A DNA stretch of 64,000 nucleotides. It comes from Longimicrobiales bacterium (GTDB lineage: Bacteria; Gemmatimonadota; Gemmatimonadetes; Longimicrobiales; Gaopeijiaceae). The position numbers and the translations under genes are program-made. Below are positions 60,361 to 60,718 of this stretch, piece by piece (the first letter of the stretch is position 1; every line of letters begins with the position of its first letter). The stretch is from contig OZ241869.1 in NCBI GenBank assembly GCA_965202805.1, forward strand, positions 544,001 through 608,000. The letters are read 5' to 3'. The notes beneath the pieces are model-generated. The model was not told the DNA's origin. It made no database searches and worked only from the letters and a program-made list of their open reading frames with translations.

Positions 60361-60389
60361 TTGACACGGCCGAAACGGACCCTTATCAT
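60361..60389 (+). promoter_or_regulatory. Near-consensus sigma70 promoter
   Basis: TTGACA-17nt-TATCAT. Confidence 0.8.
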
Positions 60390-60395
60390 GGTAGT

Positions 60396-60718
60396 CCGCT
60401 TCGAGCGCAGTTGGCTCACAGTCGATGGCGATGGTCATCCCTGGAGAGCAGTTCGGAGTGGAGGTTCGCTGGGCGGGACGCCGCGACAGCGGACGCGAGC
60501 CGGGACTTGAGCCCCGGTGAGCCGGTGGAGGGGTCGCTGTCCTCCACAAGTAGCCCCGAAAGCGAAGGGGCACCTGAGCCGCACGCTGCGCGGCGAGGGG
60601 AAAAAGGGACCAGAGCCGGTCGGCCGCACGCGGCCGGGTTCAAGCAACGGAGTTGGTGCCGGCAGCGAAAAGAGGGCCCCCCGGGATCGGCGTGACGACC
60701 CGGGGGGCCGCTTTGTTT
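60396..60718 (+). ncRNA. Candidate stand-alone structured ncRNA of about 320 nt, family unassigned
   Basis: Own promoter and terminator, nested helices, no credible ORF. Confidence 0.6.
60675..60718. terminator. Intrinsic terminator, probably bidirectional
   Basis: GGCCCCCCGGG/CCCGGGGGGCC stem, TTTGTTT tail, AAAAGA on the left. Confidence 0.8.

Follow-up and report, generated by a model that had tools for sequence, protein, structure and literature searches.

Positions 60361-60718 of a 64,000-nucleotide stretch of a Longimicrobiales (Gemmatimonadota) genome, the whole of which we call the window, hold an RNA gene made of a promoter, a structured body of ~275 nt and a putative terminator hairpin, for a predicted RNA of ~320 nt. 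The gap that contains it is bounded by a gene with a RelA_SpoT domain and by rnhA, with lipB upstream and carA beyond. The RNA gene is present in a single copy in the genome G000, which consists of one contig of 4.02 Mb. The features referred to below are:

59136-60263, + strand: gene with a RelA_SpoT domain, a neighbour outside the element, found beside the RNA only in genus g1 (14 of 30 loci)
60361-60389, + strand: sigma-70-type promoter, TTGACA-17-TATCAT (promoter scan, homologs)
60395-60462, + strand: P1, the 5' hairpin in its long form (68 nt), whose internal loop 60407-60411 is the 5' strand of PK3 (folding, comparison)
60464-60494, + strand: P2, a hairpin with a conserved GACG-type tetraloop cap (60473-60484); 91% of cells paired, two-sided change at 10 of 11 pairs
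60495-60522, + strand: P3, a hairpin whose loop 60506-60511 is the 5' strand of PK1 (column scan, pairing counts, swap test)
60525-60547, + strand: P4, a hairpin whose near-invariant loop 60533-60539 provides the 5' strand of PK2; 95% paired, two-sided change at 7 of 7 pairs
60553-60571, + strand: P5, a hairpin with a variable loop (pairing counts)
60573-60598, + strand: P6a/P6b, a hairpin whose loop 60585-60589 is the 3' strand of PK3 (pairing counts, swap tests)
60606-60660, + strand: P7, an arm enclosing P8 (60621-60636) and the 3' strand of PK1 (60639-60644); cells paired 76-82% for P7, 88% for P8 and 92% for PK1
60663-60668, + strand: 3' strand of PK2, CAGCGA (pairing counts, compensated variants)
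60675-60718, + strand: tall 3' hairpin with a T tail, the putative terminator (sequence, folding; a similar hairpin follows the homologs)
60788-61345, - strand: rnhA (RNase H), a convergent neighbour outside the element (gene calls, locus comparison)

The promoter, called near-perfect in the first-pass annotation, is present and agrees with the consensus at 11 of 12 positions (1 found against 0.2 expected), and a TTG-initial -35 element lies at a matching distance from a -10 element in most homologs. The same annotation described a strong terminator. A GC-rich hairpin with a T tail is indeed there (60675-60709), but it went unflagged in the terminator scan and we therefore treat the site as a putative terminator, one that is probably common to the RNA gene and the convergent rnhA. 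In the window and in homologs this hairpin is tall, carries an internal loop and has a recurring tip of CGTG or GNRA; it may belong to the folded RNA. As had also been stated, no gene follows on the same strand, the next being rnhA on the opposite one.

Of 30 loci compared, 27 have rnhA downstream on the opposite strand and 25 have lipB upstream. Only in the window's genus does the stand-alone RelA_SpoT-domain gene separate lipB from the RNA; it seems shortened or broken in L020 and is missing from the 1.5 kb upstream of the RNA in L023 and L024. The idea that the RNA is an antitoxin tied to this gene was rejected, because the pair adjoins only in genus g1. Upstream of the promoter, Gemmatimonadaceae copies (L044, L047, L048, L102, L123, L141, L174) have a palindrome-like box, TCRGG..TTYCCYGA, directly next to the -35 hexamer, and gammaproteobacterial copies have a looser form of it. 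The box is possibly an activator site. An upstream palindrome as the mark of a regulon was rejected, since in 5 genomes the strict pattern hit no more than one RNA promoter.

Folding of 60395-60718 beats 100 of 100 shuffles (z -4.69). A column scan combined with reading of the alignment predicts a comparative fold of eight hairpins in series and three crossing long-range pairings: PK1 (60506-60511 with 60639-60644), PK2 (60534-60539 with 60663-60668) and PK3 (60407-60411 with 60585-60589). The minimum-energy fold alone favours other pairings in the 3' half (-140 kcal/mol, against -129 for the model's nested helices without the pseudoknots). P1 takes a short form of 30-38 nt in other families, which keeps the PK3 strand. 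Among sequences with a clear promoter, this strand starts at median position 11 both in long P1 (n=17) and in short P1 (n=23), and the fixed start would, on this comparison, reflect a geometric constraint.

The model is supported by covariation. Over 26 homologs 85.8% of cells are paired and 63 of 98 pairs show two-sided change, with 0 of 500 shuffles as good; controls slid along the same alignment reach 36-46%, a lenient comparison since half of these sequences come from one genus and the alignment is the source of the model. The long-range pairings score 92% (PK1), 97% (PK2) and 93% (PK3). In a wider set of 43 sequences, in which P3, P7 and P8 align poorly, the 30 well-aligned pairs stand at 93%, 22 of them with two-sided change. 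We also applied a swap test that depends little on alignment to 37 later-found homologs outside the model, three partial rows being excluded. The Watson-Crick run was 5.54 for cognate and 4.45 for swapped strands of PK1, and 5.78 versus 4.91 for PK3 (each 0 of 2000 swaps); PK2 gave 5.19 versus 5.11 (41 of 2000), a weak result attributable to its near-invariance. Kin among the homologs are not independent, so these counts are not probabilities. With 133 distinct sequences found by pattern, PK1 (5.92 versus 5.27) and PK3 (6.50 versus 5.28) again lay above all 2000 swaps; neither was part of the search pattern, whereas PK2 was partly selected by it. PK2 nonetheless has a handful of compensated variants (L030, L035, L049, L210, L211), and the invariant and 90% columns cluster around it. 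Covariation of this kind fits pairing within one molecule and pairing between copies alike.

These results revise the structure drawn in the first-pass annotation. The complementary stretches listed there all exist in the sequence, the collection of homologs that it proposed as a check showed the stems, PK1 and PK3 to covary, and four of its hairpins (60525-60547, 60553-60571, 60578-60594 and 60621-60636) are paired in 85-99% of cells over the 26 homologs. A helix joining 60506-60513 to 60637-60644 survives as its CTTGAG/TTCAAG core (92%), but as a pseudoknot arising from a hairpin loop rather than as a nested helix, and its two-pair extension is paired in 71%. The proposed outer helix TTCGCTG/CAGCGAA, 76% paired and lacking two-sided change in its inner five pairs, gives way to PK2; likewise the hairpin CCGC-GACA-GCGG (80%) is replaced by the GACG-capped P2. 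The 68-nt 5' hairpin and PK3 are additions to that earlier picture.

Searches for a known family returned nothing that matches. Against 4227 Rfam families the window stretch gave only chance microRNA-type matches, and the RNA in 16 homolog loci gave none; this was the check suggested beforehand, and the novelty stands. The whole 64-kb window yields two tRNAs, and a tRNA-Gly(GCC) and tRNA-Cys(GCA) pair lies at 30223-30416. RNase P RNA, tmRNA and SRP RNA, which fall in a similar size range and of which RNase P RNA and tmRNA likewise contain pseudoknots, had been set aside on the absence of their signatures. This was borne out, as their models do not match and G000 has its own genes for tmRNA, RNase P RNA and SRP RNA elsewhere (529550, 3561085 and 727065, respectively). 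The segment 60613-60640 resembles domain 5 of group II introns and the PK1 words resemble 6S RNA; neither likeness is kept in homologs.

The suggestion of a divergent 6S RNA did not hold. Where 6S (RF00013) has a long duplex with a central unpaired bubble, the comparative fold has hairpins in series, with no closing stem (the closing helix is paired in 76% of cells versus 97% for PK2) and no central bubble. RF00013 has no match in the window, in G000 or in 16 homolog loci, and the gammaproteobacterial genome G203 carries both this RNA and a canonical 6S (81.6 bits). The TGAGCC/GGTTCA words that had prompted the comparison vary among homologs (TTGG/CCAA, TTCG/CGAA, TCAG/CTGA). The Ms1 model (RF02566) does not match at the window or in G000, the genome search being a weak one in which the model passed its cut-off in 0 of 14 control genomes, and the fold differs from the Ms1 arrangement of a central bubble with short end hairpins. 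Both 6S and Ms1, the latter ~300 nt long, require the central bubble (PMC9130861, in part). Our RNA resembles them in being an independent gene with a sigma-70-type promoter, in a host with no detectable 6S and at a size near that of Ms1; it differs in having three pseudoknots and no rod with a central bubble. A zapA-rny pair, with no detectable 6S, is present at 18106-20219 of the window. A 6S gene in its gap (18417-18627) was considered and rejected (z -0.31, no Rfam match, not conserved in 26 loci).

Among large orphan RNAs, raiA is one of the closest in character. It is a compact, pseudoknotted RNA that binds KhpA/KhpB, with a closing stem and with two pseudoknots that share a linker (PMC12968392, in part). 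As far as that source describes it, raiA (200-250 nt) shares with our RNA a stand-alone gene, up to eight stems, pseudoknots, and a conserved core with a variable periphery whose subtypes gain or lose stems. It differs in its conserved closing stem P1, formed from the 5' and 3' ends, and in occurring in other phyla. In our RNA there is no closing stem: the 3' end pairs with the P4 loop, the 5' end forms its own hairpin, and the three long-range pairings are separate. The Rfam raiA model matches neither the window nor the 16 homolog loci. Loops first noticed by covariation join ROOL, GOLLD and OLE into oligomers; raiA, in the same work, is a monomer (10.1101/2024.12.08.627333, in part). These larger RNAs exceed 500 nt, whereas the body here spans 213-300 nt to the end of PK2 across homologs; their models gave no match, and no viral copy was found. 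The RNA does have the properties of a large orphan structured noncoding RNA, namely a length above 200 nt, a covarying multi-helix fold, its own promoter and putative terminator, and no ORF.

With regard to coding, a 31-codon ORF begins at 60425, and the longest ATG frames vary in start and length across 57 homologs. A conserved translated ORF, which the first-pass annotation had named as evidence against a noncoding RNA, was looked for in these 57 homologs and not found. Evidence of transcription came from a search of sequencing runs, in which 24 runs carry the RNA stretch and 8 of these are recorded as RNA. Six RNA runs from five studies contain short contigs of close relatives, all of them inside 60396-60677:

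X16: 60396-60646 (256 nt, depth 164)
X1: 60429-60677
X3: 60428-60666
X2: pieces within 60415-60667
X4: 60403-60633
X14: 60439-60645

Their 5' limit agrees with the predicted start, and the flanking genes have no cover by RNA contigs; a further contig, X23, from a run whose kind is not on record and whose cover is genome-like, continues across the element. These contigs carry no strand, ends or level, the missing cover on flanking genes is not taken as a sign of expression level, DNA may be present in RNA libraries, and the runs were chosen for holding the stretch. They are thus a weak-to-moderate hint that a discrete transcript is made.

Homologs are patchy across Gemmatimonadota. By DNA search 35 of 61 related genomes matched (16/18 in the genus, 27/36 in the family), some through short chance pieces, and 29 loci were judged by eye to hold the element. 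A first model, R1, hit 25 of 151 genomes of the phylum; 19 places in 18 genomes, scoring at least 45 bits, are real, and seven weak places below 28 bits were rejected by eye. A second model, R2, hit 33 of 151 genomes of the class, distributed as 21/37 in family f1, 4/4 in f3, 1/3 in f2, 5/11 in f5 and 1/38 in f7, with none in f4 (0/33), f9 (0/18), f6 (0/5) or f13 (0/1). An exact pattern run over GTDB contigs gave 79 loci, and R2 accepted 69, named as 63 Gemmatimonadota and 6 Gammaproteobacteria. Metagenomes contributed 112 pattern loci; 100 were given to the model and 90 matched. Elsewhere, with a few dozen candidates scored per genome, the RNA was found in 0 of 40 genomes around a Latescibacterota genome and in 0 of 5 single genomes of other phyla. 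One 63-nt, 27-bit match in 101 genomes of the Acidobacteriota neighbourhood was treated as chance. Viruses gave 0 matches to the core pattern, and two viral matches to an 18-mer do not score with the models.

The gene is dispensable: it was not found in G007, a complete genome of the same genus, and in the home family the G035 and G036 genomes lack it in their lipB-rnhA gap. Some genomes hold two or three copies, and diverged pairs lie in tandem or near-tandem within 0.35-1.5 kb (L322, L382, L418; G042:C253:8655-10307). Outside the first set, 17 of 33 loci have a downstream ORF with a Pfam name, on the opposite strand in 14 and on the same strand in 3, and the families are unrelated. The consistent class of same-strand downstream genes that is the hallmark of a riboswitch is therefore not seen among these 17. 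Subtypes exist as well. Copies in genus g37 (L054, L055, L173, L213-L224) have a 5' region that is longer and rich in purines, together with a short P6 loop, and by eye PK3 looks lost on both sides; rplU/rpmA lie upstream of the RNA in two g37 loci. A shorter subtype (L101, L177, L281) apparently does without the P2 hairpin.

The copies outside Gemmatimonadota form one clade in a genus of Steroidobacteraceae (Gammaproteobacteria), where a block of ~370 bp comprising promoter, RNA and terminator occurs in filled and empty alleles. R1 gave 1 true match in 41 Steroidobacteraceae genomes, and R2 matched 8 of 40 in the genus of G203, a tally that includes the unpublished genomes G345 and G352. Every copy has lysM on one side and a thrC-like gene on the other, inside the native def-fmt-lysM-dprA block. 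A further tally, 25 of 40, likewise includes G345 and G352, whose loci were left out of the gap comparison; 23 thrC-like loci were given to the model and 8 hold the RNA. Five filled lysM-thrC gaps measure 600-607 bp against 231-237 bp in three close empty ones, and contain only promoter, RNA and terminator. In L465, L466, L470, L476, L477 and L480, all of them alleles that lack the RNA, a repeated palindromic element of another kind, with GCTCGCTC/GAGCGAGC words, occupies the same lysM-thrC site and is REP- or MITE-like.

Six gammaproteobacterial copies form a single branch (100/100) among Gemmatimonadaceae-type sequences, the deeper order being poorly separated. We infer a direction of transfer from Gemmatimonadota to Gammaproteobacteria from the far wider spread in the former, not from a rooted tree. 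Co-transfer with the thrC-like gene was rejected: the gene is proteobacterial and present in empty alleles, and a scan of 9 of 64 parts put no Gemmatimonadota record among its 80 best relatives. Within the gammaproteobacterial clade P4 and PK1 show compensated changes by eye.

Taken together, the results describe an independent gene whose pseudoknotted fold is conserved and which has neither a coding nor a cis role. The first-pass annotation had proposed a trans-acting RNA, either a divergent 6S or a new family; a conserved, undescribed structured RNA with its own promoter is borne out, the trans role is a matter of interpretation and the 6S alternative falls away. Our tentative preference, which we hold at somewhat less than even confidence, is for a compact, self-folding RNA that acts in trans by binding a widely conserved cell protein, as decoy or scaffold. 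The ~320-nt noncoding RNA would be transcribed as a discrete, stand-alone molecule, its three pairings would form within that molecule and draw it together into a globular fold, while the near-invariant PK2 helix would serve as the recognition surface for a putative general partner. A general partner is suggested because the gene and its pairings are kept in Gammaproteobacteria with no co-located Gemmatimonadota protein gene. Since the gene can be lost, exists in duplicate and stays whole in a foreign phylum with no protein gene beside it, its partner should be one common to both phyla, unless none is needed; a separate transfer of an unlinked partner gene is possible. Protein-titrating RNAs occur in two or three copies per genome, as this RNA does in some genomes. 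By binding KhpA/KhpB, raiA offers a precedent for a pseudoknotted monomer of this compact kind (PMC12968392, in part).

The strongest competitor, though an unlikely one, is an RNA that works independently of protein, as a ribozyme or small-molecule binder with the invariant core of P4 loop and PK2 as its active site or binding pocket. Ribozymes and aptamers typically contain several pseudoknots. The three found here, the fixing of sequence around PK2 beyond the needs of pairing and the retention of a bare cassette in another phylum would all suit such an RNA, but no Rfam ribozyme or riboswitch matches, RNA contigs pass through the body without a joint, no substrate is apparent and the periphery is variable. 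We regard as less probable again a homo-oligomeric ring or cage in the manner of ROOL or GOLLD, whose kissing loops were first known by covariation and proved to be intermolecular (10.1101/2024.12.08.627333, in part). That no helix closes the ends of the RNA would agree with pairings that bridge copies. Against this, the RNA is under half the size of ROOL or GOLLD, raiA of similar size is a monomer in the same source, no self-complementary loop was seen and no viral copy was found.

It is improbable to much the same degree that the RNA binds RNA polymerase as a functional substitute for 6S or Ms1. G000 has no match to either, three other Gemmatimonadota genomes have no 6S match, the zapA-rny gap shows no conserved RNA, and the sigma-70-type promoter and a size similar to that of Ms1 (~300 nt; PMC9130861, in part) would be as expected; the RNA has, however, no long duplex with a central bubble, coexists with canonical 6S in G203, and is patchy and multi-copy. 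A patchy distribution, copies that are unlinked or in tandem, sites both with and without the RNA and passage between phyla could also describe the RNA of a selfish mobile element moved in trans by an unlinked enzyme, which we think highly improbable. Its copies retain the upstream promoter, which reverse transcription would lose, target duplications and end repeats were not seen by eye, the lipB-rnhA site is stable across an order with a single copy in G000, and the 62 flanking ORFs scanned include no transposase or reverse transcriptase. Already largely refuted, and least probable of all, is a riboswitch or attenuator leader, or a small-protein gene: the aptamer-like core followed by a terminator, the gene that follows on the same strand in 3 of the 17 loci with a named one, as it does in the gammaproteobacterial clade, and the 31-codon ORF are outweighed by a downstream gene that is convergent here and in 14 of 17, by unrelated neighbours, by a thrC-like gene that also occurs without the RNA, and by reading frames that shift across the 57 homologs.

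Within the literature searched, which lay mostly outside subscription papers, we found no description of this RNA. The main text of PMC11109978, in the part available, does not name these taxa, and the text parts of 10.64898/2026.10.21.760802 and 10.64898/2026.09.22.753630 do not describe the RNA, the databases or supplements of which may hold it as an unnamed cluster. As far as the searches reach, this is a real, undescribed class of large ornate noncoding RNA that is not 6S. By the same searches it is new in family and in fold, and for now it can also be counted loosely among the orphan ornate RNAs.

Bacterial RNAs that are both large and highly pseudoknotted are rare, and those solved are ribozymes, translation helpers or self-assembling cages. 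The topology described here matches no described family that we found. A bolder reading, rather unlikely in our judgement, is that the gene encodes an undescribed RNA-only machine: a portable 370-bp gene with no dedicated protein, whose three pairings would build a catalytic or ligand-binding core or a ring between copies, and which would have remained functional after its jump from Gemmatimonadota to Gammaproteobacteria. Hundreds of diverse representatives, with natural subtypes that drop single modules, provide material for modelling, and filled and empty alleles occur naturally in two phyla. The size of the RNA suits cryo-EM, and because a gammaproteobacterial version exists, expressing the RNA in a laboratory host would be a fair test.
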